Origin: Escherichia coli
Lineage (GTDB): Bacteria > Pseudomonadota > Gammaproteobacteria > Enterobacterales > Enterobacteriaceae
Direction: 5' to 3' (one strand)
NCBI RefSeq assembly: GCF_041886205.1
Contig: NZ_CP169029.1
Length of the DNA: 64,000 nucleotides
Of the stretch, positions 4,517 through 10,992 are shown piece by piece (the stretch's first letter is position 1; each line of letters opens with the position of its first letter). The position numbers were made by a program, and so were the translations under genes. The notes beneath the pieces were generated by a model that saw nothing but the letters and a program-made list of their open reading frames with translations, was not told where the DNA came from and did no database searches.

Positions 4517-4628
4517 AGTGTGTTCCTCTGCTCCCGGCAATGCGCCGAAATCGCATTGCGCCATTGATGTAATTATCGCAGCCTTACCGGAGAAAAACAG
4601 CGGAACGGCGATGGTTTAGAGATAAAAA

Positions 4629-4658
4629 AATGCCCGGGAATCTCATTCACCGGGCATT
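4629..4658 (-). terminator. Rho-independent terminator downstream of acnB
   Basis: Stem aatgcccgg/ccgggcatt; on the minus strand it is followed by a U-run (plus-strand aaaaaaa at 4624-4630). Confidence 0.6.
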
Positions 4659-4691
4659 GTGTCGTTTATGCGCAGCGCGTGCGCTTACTTA

Positions 4692-7289
4692 TTAAACCGC
4701 AGTCTGGAAAATCACACCATCGGCTTTTTCAGTGTACTGAGAAAGCTGGTTGAAGTTCAGGTAACGGTAAGTATCAACGGCAGTTTTATCCACCTGCGCC
4801 ACGTAGGTCTGGTACTCTTCCGGCGTCGGTAGTTTGCCAATCAGCGCCGCAACAGCAGCCAGTTCCGCAGAAGCCAGGAAGACATTCGCGCCAGTCCCCA
4901 GACGGTTCGGGAAGTTACGGGTCGAGGTGGAAACCACCGTCGCGCCGTCTGCCACACGCGCCTGGTTACCCATACACAGGGAACAGCCAGGGATCTCGAT
5001 ACGCGCACCACTCTTACCGAAGACGCTGTAGTAGCCTTCTTCGGTCAACTGCGCGGCGTCCATACGGGTTGGCGGTGCTACCCACAGGCGGGTCGGCAAC
5101 TGACCTTTGTGTGCATCCAGCAGTTTACCCGCAGCACGGAAGTGACCGATGTTGGTCATGCAAGAACCGATAAACACTTCGTCGATCTTCTCACCCTGTA
5201 CCGCAGACAGCGGTCGCGCGTCATCCGGGTCGTTCGGAGCACACAGGATTGGCTCTTTAATATCCGCCAGATCGATGTCGATCACTGCCGCGTATTCCGC
5301 ATCTGCATCGGCTTCCAGCAGCTCAGGATTCGCCAGCCATTTTTCCATGCCCTGAATACGACGTTCCAGGGTACGACGATCGCCGTAACCTTCCGCGATC
5401 ATCCACTTCAGCAGGACGATGTTAGAGTTCAGGTATTCGATGATCGGTTCTTTGTTCAGCTTGATGGTACAACCGGCAGCAGAACGCTCGGCGGATGCAT
5501 CGGTCAGCTCAAAGGCCTGCTCAACTTTCAGATCCGGCAGACCTTCAATTTCGAGGATGCGGCCAGAGAAGATGTTTTTCTTGCCTTTCTTCTCAACGGT
5601 CAGCAGACCTTGTTTGATCGCATACAGCGGAATGGCGTGTACCAGATCGCGCAGGGTGATGCCCGGCTGCATTTTGCCTTTGAAGCGCACCAGAACGGAT
5701 TCCGGCATATCCAGCGGCATTACGCCAGTTGCGGCAGCAAACGCCACCAGACCAGAACCCGCCGGGAAAGAGATACCGATCGGGAAACGGGTATGGGAGT
5801 CACCACCGGTACCGACGGTATCCGGCAGCAGCATACGGTTCAGCCAGGAGTGGATTACGCCGTCCCCCGGACGCAGCGACACACCGCCACGGTTCATAAT
5901 GAAGTCCGGCAGCGTGTGGTGCGTGTTCACGTCAACTGGCTTCGGATACGCCGCGGTGTGGCAGAAAGACTGCATCACCAGGTCAGCCGAGAAGCCCAGG
6001 CACGCCAGGTCTTTCAGTTCATCACGGGTCATCGGGCCTGTGGTGTCCTGAGAGCCTACAGAAGTCATTTTCGGTTCACAGTACGCGCCCGGACGAATGC
6101 CTTTCACGCCACAGGCACGGCCTACCATTTTTTGCGCCAGCGAGAAGCCGCGATCGCTCTCAGCGACATCTTTCGCCTGACGGAACACATCACTGTGCGG
6201 CAGACCAAGTGCTTCACGCGCTTTGGTGGTCAGGCCACGCCCGATAATCAGCGGAATACGGCCGCCAGCACGCACTTCATCAATCAGCACGTCGGTTTTC
6301 AGTTCGAAGGTCGCCAGCAGTTCGCCTGTTTCGTGGTTACGCACTTCACCTTTGTACGGGTAAACGTCAATCACGTCGCCCATGTTCAGGTTAGAGACGT
6401 CGACTTCGATTGGCAGTGCACCCGCGTCTTCCATCGTGTTAAAGAAGATGGGTGCAATTTTACCGCCGAGGCACAAACCACCGCCGCGTTTGTTCGGCAC
6501 ATGTGGAATATCATCGCCCATAAACCACAGAACGGAGTTCGTGGCGGATTTACGCGATGAACCCGTACCCACAACGTCACCGACGTACGCCAGCGGGAAA
6601 CCTTTCTGTTGCAGAGCTTCAATCTGTTTGATCGGGCCAACAACACCTGGCTGGTCTGGCTCAATACCTTCACGGGCGTTTTTCAGCATCGCCAGCGCGT
6701 GCAGTGGGATATCCGGGCGCGACCACGCATCCGGTGCCGGAGAAAGGTCATCGGTGTTGGTTTCGCCAGTGACTTTGAAGACGGTAACGGTCAGTTTTTC
6801 AGCCAGCGCCGGGCGATTCAGGAACCATTCGGCATCCGCCCAGGACTGCATTACCTGCTTCGCATATTCGTTGCCTGCTTTGGCTTTCTCTTCTACGTCA
6901 TAGAAGTTATCGAACATCAGCAGTGTGTGAGAAAGTGCTTTGGCAGCGATCGGTGCCAGTTTGGCATCATCCAGCGCGTCGATCAGCGGATGAATGTTGT
7001 AACCACCCTGCATGGTACCCAGCAGTTCGATGGCTTTTTCCGGAGTCAGCAGAGGGGATTTGGCTTCGCCTTTAGCGATAGCAGCCAGGAAGCCTGCTTT
7101 GACATAGGCGGCTTCATCGACGCCAGGGGGAACACGGTTGGTTAATAGATCTAACAGGAATTCTTCTTCGCCCGCGGGCGGGTTTTTCAGCAGCTCTACA
7201 AGTGCGGCCATTTGGTTTGCATCCAGGGGTTTGGGCGCAATCCCCTCAGCGGCACGCTCAGCTACGTGCTTACGGTATTCTTCTAGCAC
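4692..7289 (-). CDS. acnB: Aconitate hydratase B (bifunctional aconitase/2-methylisocitrate dehydratase)
   Basis: 865-aa translation beginning (V)[15 protein letters not shown] from a GTG start at 7287-7289; Fe-S cluster Cys motifs. Confidence 0.95.
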
Positions 7290-7643
7290 GACGGTTCTCC
7301 TCGCTCTCATTGTCATAGTGCGGCAGGCGATTCTCTTCACGCTCCTGTGAGACAGCAGTTTGTAGGGTAAATGCCCAGTACCGCAACGGGCAGAATAGCA
7401 GGATTTTGACGAGGTGTTAATCTGTTTACAAAAAAGCAACATAAAAAAGTGGCTGAATCGTTAAGGATGGTCTAGAGATTGTTTCCCTCCGTAAAAACTT
7501 CGTTAATTCGCATGGTGATAATCACCTTTCTCAACGAATCCCAAGATTAGTCAAAATTTAAACTACCGCCTCTTTATACTCGGATTCACAGCACCTGCGG
7601 GTGGCAGTTCGCCGACCATTGCGATTTCCTTGAGATCCGAATT

Positions 7644-9497
7644 ATGAAAATGACTTTGCCGTTTAAACCCCATGTGCTGGCGCTAATTTGCAGTGCCGGG
7701 CTTTGTGCCGCCTCTACCGGGCTATATATAAAAAGCCGCACAGTGGAAGCGCCTGTGGAACCGCAATCGACACAACTGGCTGTGTCTGACGCTGCCGCGG
7801 TTACGTTTCCTGCAACGGTTTCCGCACCTCCCGTAACACCCGCCGTCGTCAAATCCGCATTCAGCACTGCACAAATAGATCAATGGGTCGCGCCCGTCGC
7901 GCTGTATCCCGACGCCCTACTTTCGCAGGTGCTGATGGCATCAACCTATCCGACAAACGTTGCTCAAGCAGTGCAATGGTCGCACGATAATCCACTTAAA
8001 CAAGGCGATGCTGCTATTCAGGCGGTATCTGACCAGCCGTGGGACGCCAGCGTTAAATCACTGGTGGCCTTTCCACAATTGATGGCATTGATGGGCGAAA
8101 ACCCGCAATGGGTGCAAAACCTGGGCGATGCTTTTCTGGCCCAGCCGCAGGACGTGATGGACTCGGTACAGCGATTGCGGCAACTGGCGCAACAAACCGG
8201 CTCGCTGAAGTCATCAACCGAACAGAAAGTTATTACCACAACGAAGAAAGCTGTACCGGTAAAACAGACAGTCACGGCACCCGTCATACCATCCAATACA
8301 GTTTTAACTGCCAACCCCGTCATTACAGAGCCGGCAACAACCGTCATTTCCATTGAGCCCGCCAATCCTGATGTGGTCTATATTCCCAACTACAACCCAA
8401 CCGTGGTTTACGGGAACTGGGCCAATACTGCGTATCCGCCGGTTTATCTGCCACCACCAGCCGGAGAACCGTTTGTTGACAGCTTTGTACGCGGATTCGG
8501 CTATAGCATGGGCGTTGCTACCACGTACGCACTATTCAGCAGCATCGACTGGGACGACGACGATCATGACCATCATCATCATGACGATGATGATTATCAT
8601 CACCACGATGGCGGTCATCGTGACGGTAATGGCTGGCAACACAACGGCGACAACATCAATATCGACGTCAACAATTTCAACCGTATCACCGGTGAGCATC
8701 TTACTGATAAGAATATGGCATGGCGGCACAATCCAAACTACCGTAATGGTGTGCCCTATCATGATCAGGATATGGCAAAGCGGTTTCATCAAACCGATGT
8801 CAACGGCGGAATGAGCGCCACGCAATTACCTGCCCCAACGCGCGACAGCCAGCGTCAGGCGGCAGCAAATCAGTTTCAGCAACGAACACACGCCGCACCA
8901 GTCATTACACGAGATACCCAACGTCAGGCAGCGGCACAGCGGTTTAATGAAGCTGAACACTATGGGAGCTATGACGACTTCCACGACTTCAGCCGTCGCC
9001 AACCACTGACCCAGCAACAAAAGGACGCCGCTCGTCAGCGTTATCAGTCCGCCTCGCCTGAGCAGCGCCAGGCAGTTCGCGAGAGAATGCAGACTAACCC
9101 GCAGATCCAGCAGCGAAGAGAGGCAGCGCGTGAGCGCATTCAGTCCGCCTCGCCTGAGCAGCGCCAGGCGGTTCGCGAGAAAATGCAGACTAACCCGCAG
9201 AACCAGCAGCGAAGAGACGCAGCGCGTGAGCGTATTCAGTCCGCATCACCAGAGCAGCGCCAGGTGTTTAAGGAAAAAGTACAGCAGCGCCCACTGAATC
9301 AACAGCAACGTGATAACGCCCGCCAGCGTGTTCAATCGGCATCACCTGAACAACGTCAGGTTTTTCGGGAAAAAGTTCAGGAGAGCCGCCCACAACGTCT
9401 AAACGACAGTAACCATACTGTCAGGCTGAATAACGAGCAACGGTCAGCAGTACGCGAACGTCTCTCTGAGCGCGGAGCAAGGCGACTGGAAAGGTAA
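7644..9497 (+). CDS. yacH: DUF3300-family protein YacH, function unknown
   Basis: 617-aa ORF with N-terminal signal/TM segment, an Asp/His-rich block and C-terminal tandem Gln/Arg-rich repeats; position between acnB and lpd. Confidence 0.85.
   Translation: MKMTLPFKPHVLALICSAGLCAASTGLYIKSRTVEAPVEPQSTQLAVSDAAAVTFPATVSAPPVTPAVVKSAFSTAQIDQWVAPVALYPDALLSQVLMASTYPTNVAQAVQWSHDNPLKQGDAAIQAVSDQPWDASVKSLVAFPQLMALMGENPQWVQNLGDAFLAQPQDVMDSVQRLRQLAQQTGSLKSSTEQKVITTTKKAVPVKQTVTAPVIPSNTVLTANPVITEPATTVISIEPANPDVVYIPNYNPTVVYGNWANTAYPPVYLPPPAGEPFVDSFVRGFGYSMGVATTYALFSSIDWDDDDHDHHHHDDDDYHHHDGGHRDGNGWQHNGDNINIDVNNFNRITGEHLTDKNMAWRHNPNYRNGVPYHDQDMAKRFHQTDVNGGMSATQLPAPTRDSQRQAAANQFQQRTHAAPVITRDTQRQAAAQRFNEAEHYGSYDDFHDFSRRQPLTQQQKDAARQRYQSASPEQRQAVRERMQTNPQIQQRREAARERIQSASPEQRQAVREKMQTNPQNQQRRDAARERIQSASPEQRQVFKEKVQQRPLNQQQRDNARQRVQSASPEQRQVFREKVQESRPQRLNDSNHTVRLNNEQRSAVRERLSERGARRLER
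9045..9380 (+). repeat. Intragenic tandem repeat in yacH (96-nt period, about 3.5 units)
   Basis: Units starting 9045, 9141 and 9237; the first two are near-identical at the nucleotide level and encode QSASPEQRQAVRE(R/K)MQTNPQxQQRRxAARERI. Confidence 0.85.
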
Positions 9498-9508
9498 ATT
9501 ACAGACGT

Positions 9509-9539
9509 AAAAAAAGCGGCGTGGTTAGCCGCTTTTTTA
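9509..9539. terminator. Bidirectional terminator between convergent yacH and lpd
   Basis: aaaaaa-agcggc-gtggtta-gccgct-tttttt: a GC stem flanked by an A-run and a T-run. Confidence 0.65.
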
Positions 9540-9567
9540 ATTGCCGGATGTTCCGGCAAACGAAAAA

Positions 9568-10992
9568 TTACTTCTTCTTCGCTTTCGGGTTCGGCAGGTC
9601 GGTAATGCTACCTTCGAACACTTCTGCCGCCAGGCCCACAGACTCGTGCAGAGTCGGGTGCGCGTGGATGGTCAGTGCGATGTCTTCAGCATCACAACCC
9701 ATTTCGATTGCCAGACCGATTTCACCCAGCAGCTCACCGCCGTTAGTACCGACAATCGCACCACCGATCACACGGTGAGATTCTTTGTCGAAAATCAGCT
9801 TGGTCATACCGTCTGCGCAGTCGGAAGCGATAGCACGGCCAGAAGCAGCCCACGGGAAGGTGGCGGTCTCAAAGCTGATGCCTTTCTCTTTCGCTTCTTT
9901 CTCAGTCAGACCTACCCATGCAACTTCTGGTTCGGTATAGGCGATGGACGGGATAACTTTCGGATCGAAGTAATGTTTTTTACCGGCGATAACTTCAGCG
10001 GCAACGTGACCTTCGTGAACACCTTTATGTGCCAGCATTGGCTGACCGACGATATCGCCGATAGCAAAGATGTGCGGTACGTTGGTACGCAGTTGTTTGT
10101 CAACGCGGATGAAACCACGGTCGTCAACTTCCACGCCAGCTTTGCCTGCGTCGAGGTTTTTACCGTTCGGCACACGACCAATCGCTACCAGCACGGCGTC
10201 GTAACGCTGCGGTTCAGCGGGTGCTTTTTTGCCTTCCATCGTCACATAAATGCCGTCTTCTTTCGCTTCAACGGCGGTAACTTTGGTTTCCAGCATCAGG
10301 TTGAATTTCTTGCTGATACGCTTGGTGAAGACTTTAACGATGTCTTTGTCAGCTGCCGGGATAACCTGGTCGAACATTTCAACCACGTCAATCTGTGAAC
10401 CCAGCGCGTGGTAAACGGTGCCCATTTCCAGACCGATGATACCGCCACCCATTACCAGCAGGCGTTCTGGTACTTCTTTCAGTTCCAGCGCGTCAGTGGA
10501 GTCCCAGATACGCGGATCTTCATGCGGAATAAACGGCAGTTGGATCGGGCGAGAACCCGCTGCAATGATCGCGTTGTCGAAGTTGATCACGGTTTTACCG
10601 TTCTCACCTTCAACTTCCAGGGTGTTAGCCCCGGTGAATTTACCCAGACCGTTGACCACTTTGACTTTGCGGCCTTTCGCCATACCAGCCAGACCACCGG
10701 TCAGCTGATTGATCACTTTCTCTTTCCAGGTACGAATCTTGTCGATATCGGTTTTCGGTTCGCCGAAGACGATACCATGTTCAGCCAGCGCTTTGGCTTC
10801 TTCGATAACTTTTGCTACGTGCAGCAGTGCTTTAGAAGGGATACAGCCGACGTTCAGGCAAACACCGCCAAGGGTGTTGTAACGTTCTACGATTACGGTT
10901 TCCAGACCTAAATCAGCGCAACGGAAGGCAGCGGAGTAACCTGCGGGGCCTGCCCCAAGTACCACGACCTGAGTTTTGATTTCAGTACTCAT
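9568..10992 (-). CDS. lpd: Dihydrolipoyl dehydrogenase (E3 of the PDH and OGDH complexes)
   Basis: 474-aa translation MSTEIKTQVVVLGAGPAGYSAAFR… with FAD/NAD motifs and redox-active CxxxxC (GGVCLNVGCIPSK). Confidence 0.96.
   Translation of the reverse strand: MSTEIKTQVVVLGAGPAGYSAAFRCADLGLETVIVERYNTLGGVCLNVGCIPSKALLHVAKVIEEAKALAEHGIVFGEPKTDIDKIRTWKEKVINQLTGGLAGMAKGRKVKVVNGLGKFTGANTLEVEGENGKTVINFDNAIIAAGSRPIQLPFIPHEDPRIWDSTDALELKEVPERLLVMGGGIIGLEMGTVYHALGSQIDVVEMFDQVIPAADKDIVKVFTKRISKKFNLMLETKVTAVEAKEDGIYVTMEGKKAPAEPQRYDAVLVAIGRVPNGKNLDAGKAGVEVDDRGFIRVDKQLRTNVPHIFAIGDIVGQPMLAHKGVHEGHVAAEVIAGKKHYFDPKVIPSIAYTEPEVAWVGLTEKEAKEKGISFETATFPWAASGRAIASDCADGMTKLIFDKESHRVIGGAIVGTNGGELLGEIGLAIEMGCDAEDIALTIHAHPTLHESVGLAAEVFEGSITDLPNPKAKKK

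Follow-up and report, generated by a model that had tools for sequence, protein, structure and literature searches.

What does a protein that joins a histidine- and aspartate-rich block to a tail of near-identical tandem repeats do in Escherichia coli, and do these tracts differ in length from strain to strain? Both questions are raised by yacH, one of the E. coli genes still without a function, which lies in the stretch of 64,000 nucleotides (nt) of contig NZ_CP169029.1 (assembly GCF_041886205.1) analyzed here and termed the window. The results described below make it probable that YacH is a Sec-exported envelope protein of the DUF3300 family, in which two evolvable low-complexity modules are attached to a folded acidic core and the role of which would be to interact with cations.

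The open reading frame (ORF) of the window is the known E. coli gene yacH, and neither the gene nor its family is new to the catalogues. In strain RM9088, the annotated yacH shows 100% identity to the window ORF, and the gene was matched in 5,425 of 5,426 complete E. coli genomes. Pfam places DUF3300 (PF11737) at amino acids (aa) 75-333, with an E-value of 2.7e-78 and a match spanning model positions 2-227 of 227, which turns the resemblance noted in a preliminary description of the window into a family assignment. DUF3300 was the sole family reported by a Pfam scan at E<=10, and searches of NCBIfam, PADLOC and Rfam returned nothing relevant for yacH. The same description held that no function had been established for the protein, and this remains accurate: the searchable literature mentioning yacH contains phenotypic and regulatory hints only, and no paper assigns a function. 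The finding itself is therefore the correct description of an already annotated gene and not of a new kind of system; the features observed in yacH far exceed chance. What is added here is the scale and nature of the polymorphism, a clade-specific origin of the His/Asp loop, independent tail repeats in different genera and the apparent loss of a DUF2950 partner. The length polymorphism of the His/Asp block and the make-up of the 32-aa unit from two half-units of ~16 aa are also new with respect to that description.

Copy-number variation of the tail repeats

The preliminary description had counted about 3.5 tandem copies of a 32-aa unit in the C-terminal tail, the first two near-identical, and had predicted that their number would vary between strains. 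Four SASPEQRQ units are present, and units 1 and 2 are identical at 91 of 96 nt and 29 of 32 aa; because the second half of unit 4 has diverged, the original count is a fair one. Tandem Repeats Finder reports a period of 96, 2.3 copies, 93% matches and a score of 386. To the question of whether the repeats would form a coiled coil or be disordered, the AlphaFold2 (AF2) model of YacH, built on 109 homologues and with a mean predicted local distance difference test score (pLDDT) of 73.7, answers with helix pairs. Two helices are predicted in each 32-aa unit (aa 472-484/486-501, 504-516/518-533 and 536-547/553-564; pLDDT 75-89), so that a unit consists of two half-units of ~16 aa following the pattern (S/N)-x-(S/P)-P-x-Q-(R/Q)-Q...R-E-(R/K)-x-Q, in which SPEQ reads as a typical helix start.

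To survey the repeats and the His/Asp loop, evenly spaced samples of 40 and 60 genomes were taken from the 5,425 complete E. coli genomes. In the larger sample the 4-unit length was spanned in 32 genomes and 3-unit types were found in 24, while the smaller one contained 20 genomes with four units, 17 with three and one with two. Overall, ~50-53% of the sampled genomes carry four units and ~40-45% carry three. Among the best-scoring 120 clusters from public genomes and metagenomes, alleles with five, four, three and two units account for 1, 90, 28 and 1 clusters, respectively. The predicted variation in copy number is hence borne out, and yacH is a variable-number tandem repeat gene in the usual sense, with near-identical head-to-tail units and a strain-dependent number of copies.

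An alignment of seven alleles reveals the exact 32-aa and 64-aa deletions that lead to the 3-unit and 2-unit forms. One member of the unit 1/2 pair is gone from a 3-unit allele (L001) and both are gone from the 2-unit allele (L005); the 3-unit allele of CFT073 is without the unit-3 type, and 3-unit alleles are carried on different N-terminal allele backgrounds. Given these differences in unit make-up and background, either the events have recurred or the alleles have recombined. The tail has also undergone in-frame duplications of 45 aa, in the pre-repeat region of 662-aa alleles, and of 17 aa. Taken over the whole gene, the length differences seen are -39, -3, +6, +21, +24, +42, +51, +/-96 and +135 nt; nearly all yacH variants are in frame, and the one frameshifted copy among the sampled complete genomes is that of a laboratory mutant.

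The 32-aa SPEQRQ unit is restricted to Escherichia. Tail arrays of other periods are found in orthologues: a divergent E. coli has one of 102 nt, UBA5654 one of 57 nt (95% identity), RIT691 one of 54 nt and ENT03 arrays of 54/60 nt. Judging from these sequences, tandem arrays with different periods arose independently in the tails of different genera. Strain AST85 (NZ_AP043644.1), labeled E. coli and probably a member of a cryptic Escherichia lineage, encodes a YacH 75% identical to the window protein, with a 25-aa insertion before the repeats and units of 34 aa (102 nt). A unit of 96 bp has been described for locus ms11 of the multiple-locus analysis of variable-number tandem repeats (MLVA) (PMC8215070), but the identification of yacH with ms11 was rejected, since the ms11 primers find no match in the window at up to 3 mismatches. 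The literature searched yielded no description of yacH as a locus for typing.

An expanded His/Asp loop in the Enterobacteriaceae

The second tract is the His/Asp block, which had been placed at about 8526-8660 and falls within that range. It is encoded by runs of GAC, GAT, CAT and CAC codons (for example CATCATCATCAT and GATGATGAT), and residues 303-326, a segment of 24 residues that lies one to the left of the block, include 9 His and 10 Asp. Its pLDDT is below 50, and in the model it is probably a disordered loop insertion. Across the 109 homologues the equivalent loop, from a conserved Trp to the (D/N) strand, is 3 residues long at the median, and only four of them, all enterobacterial, have at least 8 His and Asp residues there. 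A His/Asp block occupies the same site in 11 of 11 enterobacterial orthologues from reference genomes, with differing sequence and length, and is missing from the Bordetella homologue; a few unrelated DUF3300 members have independent His-rich loops at this very site. The block is thus best described, on sequence comparison, as an Enterobacteriaceae-specific expansion of a family loop of ~3 residues.

Like the repeats, the block differs in length between alleles. Public proteins display over 20 variants of the block, 14-36 aa long, including 7-aa DDDDYHH duplications, and the seven-allele alignment contains a deletion of 13 aa as well as insertions of 2 aa and 8 aa. The length found in the window is shared by 49 of the 60 sampled complete genomes, and ~15-18% differ; the remaining genomes show differences of -3 nt (1), +6 nt (6), +24 nt (1) and -39 nt (1) or partial matches (2). 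In a Salmonella isolate, an 8-nt deletion has been reported within the tract (PMC10048834). Composition makes metal binding by the block plausible. A sequence search of the PDB aligned it mainly with FLAG/His purification tags, the ZnuA loop being the only natural PDB sequence aligned, at a non-significant E-value of 9.9.

Selection on yacH

The ratio of nonsynonymous to synonymous substitution rates (dN/dS), computed against B2 alleles, a divergent E. coli and E. albertii, amounts to 0.05-0.11 for the core and 0.05-0.14 for the repeats and tail. The N-terminal linker yields 0.25-0.88, and 0.7-0.9 between E. coli alleles, an estimate that rests on 48 codons only. These ratios indicate that YacH is under purifying selection which, together with the fact that its polymorphic tracts are nearly always kept in frame, argues that the protein is in use. 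Sequence divergence is concentrated within the gene. The linkers at 7737-7859 and 8220-8351 show 76-91% nt identity between E. coli alleles, with the internal linker falling to 76-86%, whereas the flanking DNA (5' end of acnB and intergenic region) is 99-100% identical between strains in which identity drops to 76-92% in the linkers and tail of yacH.

Predicted architecture of a DUF3300 protein

The hydrophobic N-terminal segment announced by the preliminary description is present, with the stretch HVLALICSAGLCAAS, and AF2 models a helix at aa 9-26 within it. A canonical lipobox was not found in the N-terminus of YacH; a lipobox-like site occurs in 8 of the 109 homologues. Beyond the first linker, the nine-helix domain is predicted with high confidence (pLDDT ~96 at aa 75-184) and carries the family motifs APxALYPD, WDxSVKSL and LGDAFLAQ..DVMD.VQRLR. 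Confidence is similar in the Pro/Tyr-rich beta part (pLDDT 94 at aa 230-270) and after the His/Asp loop (pLDDT ~94 at aa 338-385), where the motif W.H.P..R.G.PY falls outside the Pfam model boundary and is strongly conserved among the homologues (W360 in 93 of 107, H362 in 93, R367 in 92 and Y372 in 88). Charge is segregated along the protein: the core has an isoelectric point (pI) of ~4.2, and the tail (aa 386-617), with 45 Lys+Arg and 43 Gln, one of 11.5.

The family to which this core belongs is very large. A full HMMER scan of 1.84 billion representatives recovered 9,581 proteins at E<=1e-3, of which 6,602 remain at E<=1e-10. At 50% identity, DUF3300 comprises over 9,500 clusters, among which there is no characterized member and for which there is no solved structure with a similar fold. 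A Foldseek comparison of the YacH model with the PDB gave no fold match (best E 0.37), and the 929 matches of a structure search of the AlphaFold DB were, every one, DUF3300 proteins. The consensus of the 109 homologues runs through APIALYPD..L.QVLMASTYP, WDPSVKSLVAFP, LGDAFLAQ..DVMD.VQRLR and IEPA.PQVVYVP.YNPTVVYG.W to a Gly-rich ALWG...W, a (D/N)-V-(N/D)-I-(N/D)-V-N strand, W.H.P.HR.GVPYRD and Arg-rich tails. The Gly/Ala-rich segment G..FG.G.A...ALWG, at 8484-8552 in the window, is conserved across DUF3300 and may be a glycine zipper, a membrane contact or part of a buried core.

Apparent loss of the DUF2950 partner in Escherichia

DUF3300 genes tend to be accompanied by a second gene. In three of six distant metagenomic or genomic contexts DUF2950 (PF11453) is encoded immediately 3' of DUF3300, and a natural DUF3300-DUF2950 fusion is the sole informative fusion among the 109 homologues. 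In rhizobia, the two genes have been reported to be always co-localised, to encode signal peptides and to be induced in symbiosis (PMC4653623). With tblastn, a DUF2950 gene was found between the yacH orthologue and lpdA at all nine non-Escherichia loci of the Enterobacteriaceae (~264-282 aa, at about 4550-5550 in loci L020-L028), and one also lies downstream of the DUF3300 homologue of Bordetella. The same search detected no DUF2950 between yacH and lpdA in the window, the spacer of which (9498-9567) is 70 nt long, and no DUF2950 similarity in the 750-nt yacH-lpdA spacer of E. albertii. Likewise, sensitive blastn with the DUF2950 gene of Atlantibacter produced no match in the 5,426 E. coli genomes, and none of the best 120 DUF2950 proteins comes from Escherichia, their sources being Buttiauxella, Citrobacter, Klebsiella, Enterobacter and their relatives.

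On these comparisons, Escherichia appears to have lost the DUF2950 partner, and its YacH would be the orphan of a pair that other Enterobacteriaceae have kept. The possibility that yacH has been decaying since that loss was rejected, its dN/dS being 0.05-0.16. The E. albertii spacer (L019, about 4800-5546) contains an apparent small minus-strand ORF with a signal-peptide-like start and no E. coli counterpart.

A working model for YacH

Published expression and mutant data on yacH come from unrelated contexts. The gene is regulated by CpxR and repressed by protamine and cecropin A, and its deletion improves survival in protamine with respect to the wild type (PMC9600279). Its promoter is induced by ampicillin (PMC8865558), a cathelicidin-derived peptide causes mild induction (PMC6737244), a rob mutant shows reduced expression (PMC7537768), and deletion increases the yield of recombinant green fluorescent protein (PMC7376861). 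These hints point to the envelope and define no activity. The only match to a CpxR box upstream of yacH is one with 2 mismatches at 7575-7589, which is no better than chance.

In the model that we favor, YacH would be exported by the Sec system as an envelope protein of the uncharacterized DUF3300 family, with a folded acidic core formed by the nine-helix domain and the Pro/Tyr-rich beta part. The first module attached to it would be the disordered His/Asp loop, inserted in the Enterobacteriaceae only, which changes length in steps of 3 nt and through duplications and deletions of 21-39 nt, likely by replication slippage. The second would be the basic Gln/Arg-rich tail of helix-Pro-helix units, each of two half-units, in which near-identical 96-nt units are gained and lost, likely through unequal recombination or slippage. 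The majority of bacteria, among them the other Enterobacteriaceae that were examined, encode DUF3300 together with a secreted DUF2950 protein, which Escherichia appears to have lost. As for its role, composition, the conservation of that composition and the envelope phenotypes suggest that YacH may interact with cations. Candidates are divalent metals, for which the His/Asp loop and the conserved D/N-x-D/N strand next to it would supply the binding site, and perhaps also cationic peptides. The partners of the basic tail may be anionic polymers of the envelope or the acidic core of YacH itself.

Several points weigh against this proposal. The fractions given for unit number are based on 40 and 60 sampled genomes and not on a full census. 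With ~82% of the sampled genomes at a single His/Asp length, the list of distinct variants makes the tract look more hypervariable than it is, and its absence from most DUF3300 members means that the loop is not the core function of the family. The idea of cation interaction derives from composition and one protamine phenotype, and the export of YacH, its location in the envelope and its metal binding are themselves putative. A bolder version of the proposal, which we consider rather improbable, is that YacH is the surviving half of an ancient periplasmic DUF3300+DUF2950 module present in thousands of proteobacterial lineages; having gained a metal-binding His/Asp loop and basic helical repeats in the Enterobacteriaceae, it would act alone in Escherichia as an envelope cation handler tuned by heritable changes in loop length and unit number. 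If true, tuned handling of metals or cationic peptides would explain both the protamine phenotype and the control by Cpx.

Alternative explanations

The alternative that survives best, possible but clearly less probable than the proposal above, is that both tracts are selectively neutral, slippage-prone low-complexity DNA, that function resides wholly in the DUF3300 core and that length has no phenotype. Such a view accommodates the low confidence with which the His/Asp loop is modeled, its absence from most of the family, the coexistence of many in-frame length variants and the unrelated, lineage-specific repeats in the tails of other members. It is harder to reconcile with a His/Asp composition that is held at one site in all the sampled enterobacterial genera despite full turnover of the sequence, with a dN/dS for repeats and tail as low as that of the core, or with the fact that nearly every variant is in frame.

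The tracts could also be contingency loci, providing on/off or antigenic variation of a surface protein under phage or immune pressure. Triplet runs and near-identical 96-nt units are mutable, several variable modules (both linkers, loop and tail) coincide in a gene with almost invariant flanks, the N-terminal linker has an elevated dN/dS between E. coli alleles, and frameshifts do exist, in the Salmonella isolate and the laboratory mutant mentioned above. However, the repeat periods are all multiples of three, and slippage would therefore alter length without switching expression on or off; the frame-shifting repeats of a contingency locus were not observed in yacH. Moreover, a single frameshifted copy was seen among the sampled complete genomes, one His/Asp length dominates, the number of units stays between 2 and 5, surface exposure of YacH is only putative and the linker estimate derives from few codons. 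We consider this explanation unlikely.

Quite unlikely, too, is a bitopic topology in which the Gly-rich segment (aa 281-303) spans the inner membrane and leaves the His/Asp loop and the tail in the cytoplasm. Across the family, the best 19-aa hydropathy of the segment G(I/L)(A/G)FG(V/I)G(V/I)A..ALWG has a median of 1.52, with 44 of 109 members reaching 1.6, and the family-wide Arg-rich tails fit the positive-inside rule. The E. coli segment, in contrast, reaches only 0.78, and AF2 models it as short strands within a confident domain, with no helix, both in YacH and in a more hydrophobic homologue (P0155; pLDDT 84-93). Conserved residues on either side of it belong to one fold (pLDDT ~94), and an acidic block placed right after the span would break the positive-inside rule. 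A transmembrane Gly-rich segment was discarded as unsupported by the two AF2 models and by the E. coli hydropathy.

Least likely of all is that the tail units are tandem LTXXQ helical hairpins of the CpxP/Spy type and YacH a Cpx-regulated periplasmic chaperone or adaptor: BLASTP of aa 386-617 against K-12 CpxP gives 26.6 bits and 30% identity over 130 aa, aligning SASPEQRQAVRERMQ with SLTEHQRQQMRDLMQ and ASPEQRQVFKEKVQQR with LTPEQQAVLNEKHQQR, a score reached by 0 of 300 plain and 0 of 300 repeat-preserving shuffles and congruent with the CpxR regulation of yacH (PMC9600279) and the predicted helix pairs, but Pfam LTXXQ (PF07813) is unmatched even at E<=10, Spy (14.6 bits) and ZraP (13.9 bits) score no better than shuffles, orthologue tails reach at most 20.8 bits against CpxP, the similarity would not be significant at database scale and YacH has Ala, Ser or Thr in place of the Leu of LTXXQ. 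The shuffle test is, in addition, partly circular, as it was the motif, already spotted, that led to the choice of CpxP. Homology of the tail to CpxP, Spy and ZraP was accordingly set aside, the signal being limited to CpxP and without a Pfam match, and only a motif-level resemblance is retained.

Feature map and genomic context

The features of yacH and of its 3' flank are collected in Table 1.

Table 1. Features of yacH and its downstream spacer in the window (AF2, AlphaFold2;., no strand assigned)
Feature	Position	Strand	Details
yacH coding sequence	7644..9497	+	617 aa plus stop; from ORF listing
Putative export signal or signal anchor	7644..7736	+	aa 1-31; basic start, then hydrophobic HVLALICSAGLCAASTGLYI; read from sequence
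N-terminal linker	7737..7859	+	aa 32-72; Pro/Ala/Val-rich, allele-variable; pLDDT 45-55; dN/dS
DUF3300 all-alpha domain	7860..8219	+	aa 73-192; nine helices, pI 4.3; Pfam, AF2
Internal linker	8220..8351	+	aa 193-236; Thr/Val/Pro-rich, most divergent segment among E. coli alleles; alignment
Pro/Tyr-rich beta part of DUF3300	8352..8552	+	IEPA.P.VVY.P.YNP.VVYG.W; ends in Gly-rich hydrophobic segment, aa 281-303
His/Asp block	8553..8624	+	DDDDHDHHHHDDDDYHHHDGGHRD, aa 304-327; length-polymorphic; GAY/CAY triplet runs
Post-loop region	8646..8798	+	aa 335-385; (D/N)-I-(D/N)-I strand NINIDVNNFNRI and motif W.H.P..R.G.PY
Pre-repeat region	8799..9047	+	basic, Gln/Arg-rich; two TRD(S/T)QRQAAA motifs and one half-unit (LTQQQKDAARQRYQ)
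Repeat unit 1	9048..9143	+	SASPEQRQAVRERMQTNPQIQQRREAARERIQ; 91/96 nt identical to unit 2
Repeat unit 2	9144..9239	+	32 aa, 96 nt
Repeat unit 3	9240..9335	+	diverged; 60-64/96 nt vs units 1 and 2
Repeat unit 4	9336..9431	+	first half conserved, second half diverged
C-terminal end	9432..9494	+	NEQRSAVRERLSERGARRLER; conserved within Escherichia; alignment of alleles
Hairpin with A-run and T-run flanks	9509..9539	.	AAAAAAAGCGGC-GTGGTT-AGCCGCTTTTTT; read from sequence

According to the RefSeq annotation of identical loci and to tblastn, yacH is flanked upstream by the divergent acnB and downstream by the convergent lpdA, in agreement with the location between acnB and the pyruvate dehydrogenase operon given by the preliminary description. 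From its sequence, the hairpin between yacH and lpdA is a probable bidirectional terminator common to both genes; a consensus terminator scan did not list it. At 9507-9577 on the minus strand, the hairpin is overlapped by an Rfam match to AgrB that, with 28.8 bits, stays below the gathering score of 40 (E 0.038) and most likely reflects chance similarity to a hairpin. In CFT073 and similar B2-type strains the yacH-lpdA spacer is 242 nt long (2383-2623 in locus L006), as opposed to 70 nt, and the extra DNA contains palindromes like those of repetitive extragenic palindromic (REP) sequences and bacterial interspersed mosaic elements (BIME), such as GCCCGATGCGCAAGCTTATCGGGCCTACA and GTAGGTCGGATAAGGCGTTTACGCCGCATCCGGCA. 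Of the blast matches to yacH, seven or eight fall on plasmid-labeled records, which may be real plasmid copies or mislabeled replicons.

Comparison with known systems

CpxP, Spy and ZraP share with YacH the (S/T)PEQ(R/Q)Q helix start, a Gln/Arg-rich helical hairpin character and regulation by Cpx. In YacH, on the other hand, the units are in tandem and joined to another folded domain, and the similarity is not kept in orthologues. As regards the tail, in-frame variation in repeat number is found in another bacterial envelope protein, in domain II of TolA. Together with the E. coli MLVA loci, TolA domain II resembles yacH in that the latter also has in-gene units of tens of bases, with a length that is a multiple of three and a number that varies between strains. 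The natural alleles of yacH, with 2 to 5 tail units and loops of 14-36 residues, are ready material for probing both modules.

The His-rich loop of ZnuA and the His-rich tracts of SlyD and HypB are metal-binding segments of bacterial metal-handling proteins. YacH is akin to them in possessing a disordered segment rich in His and acidic residues, in what is probably a periplasmic protein, and in keeping its His/acidic composition at one site across 11 enterobacterial orthologues. It differs from them in that there is no homology and no metal-related neighbors or regulators are known for yacH.

Also close is the rhizobial DUF3300-DUF2950 module, with which YacH shares a full-length Pfam match, the family motifs including W.H.P..R.G.PY, an export-signal-like N-terminus and an Arg-rich low-complexity tail. 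Unlike the rhizobial module, the loci of E. coli and E. albertii are without a downstream DUF2950 gene, and none is found elsewhere in E. coli. In YacH, moreover, the short loop of the family has grown into a 24-aa His/Asp block and the tail has acquired Escherichia-specific SPEQRQ units. The genera that keep DUF2950 provide, next to Escherichia, a further natural comparison, and any function assigned to YacH in E. coli would apply also to a module of two genes that is widespread and, in rhizobia, induced in symbiosis.

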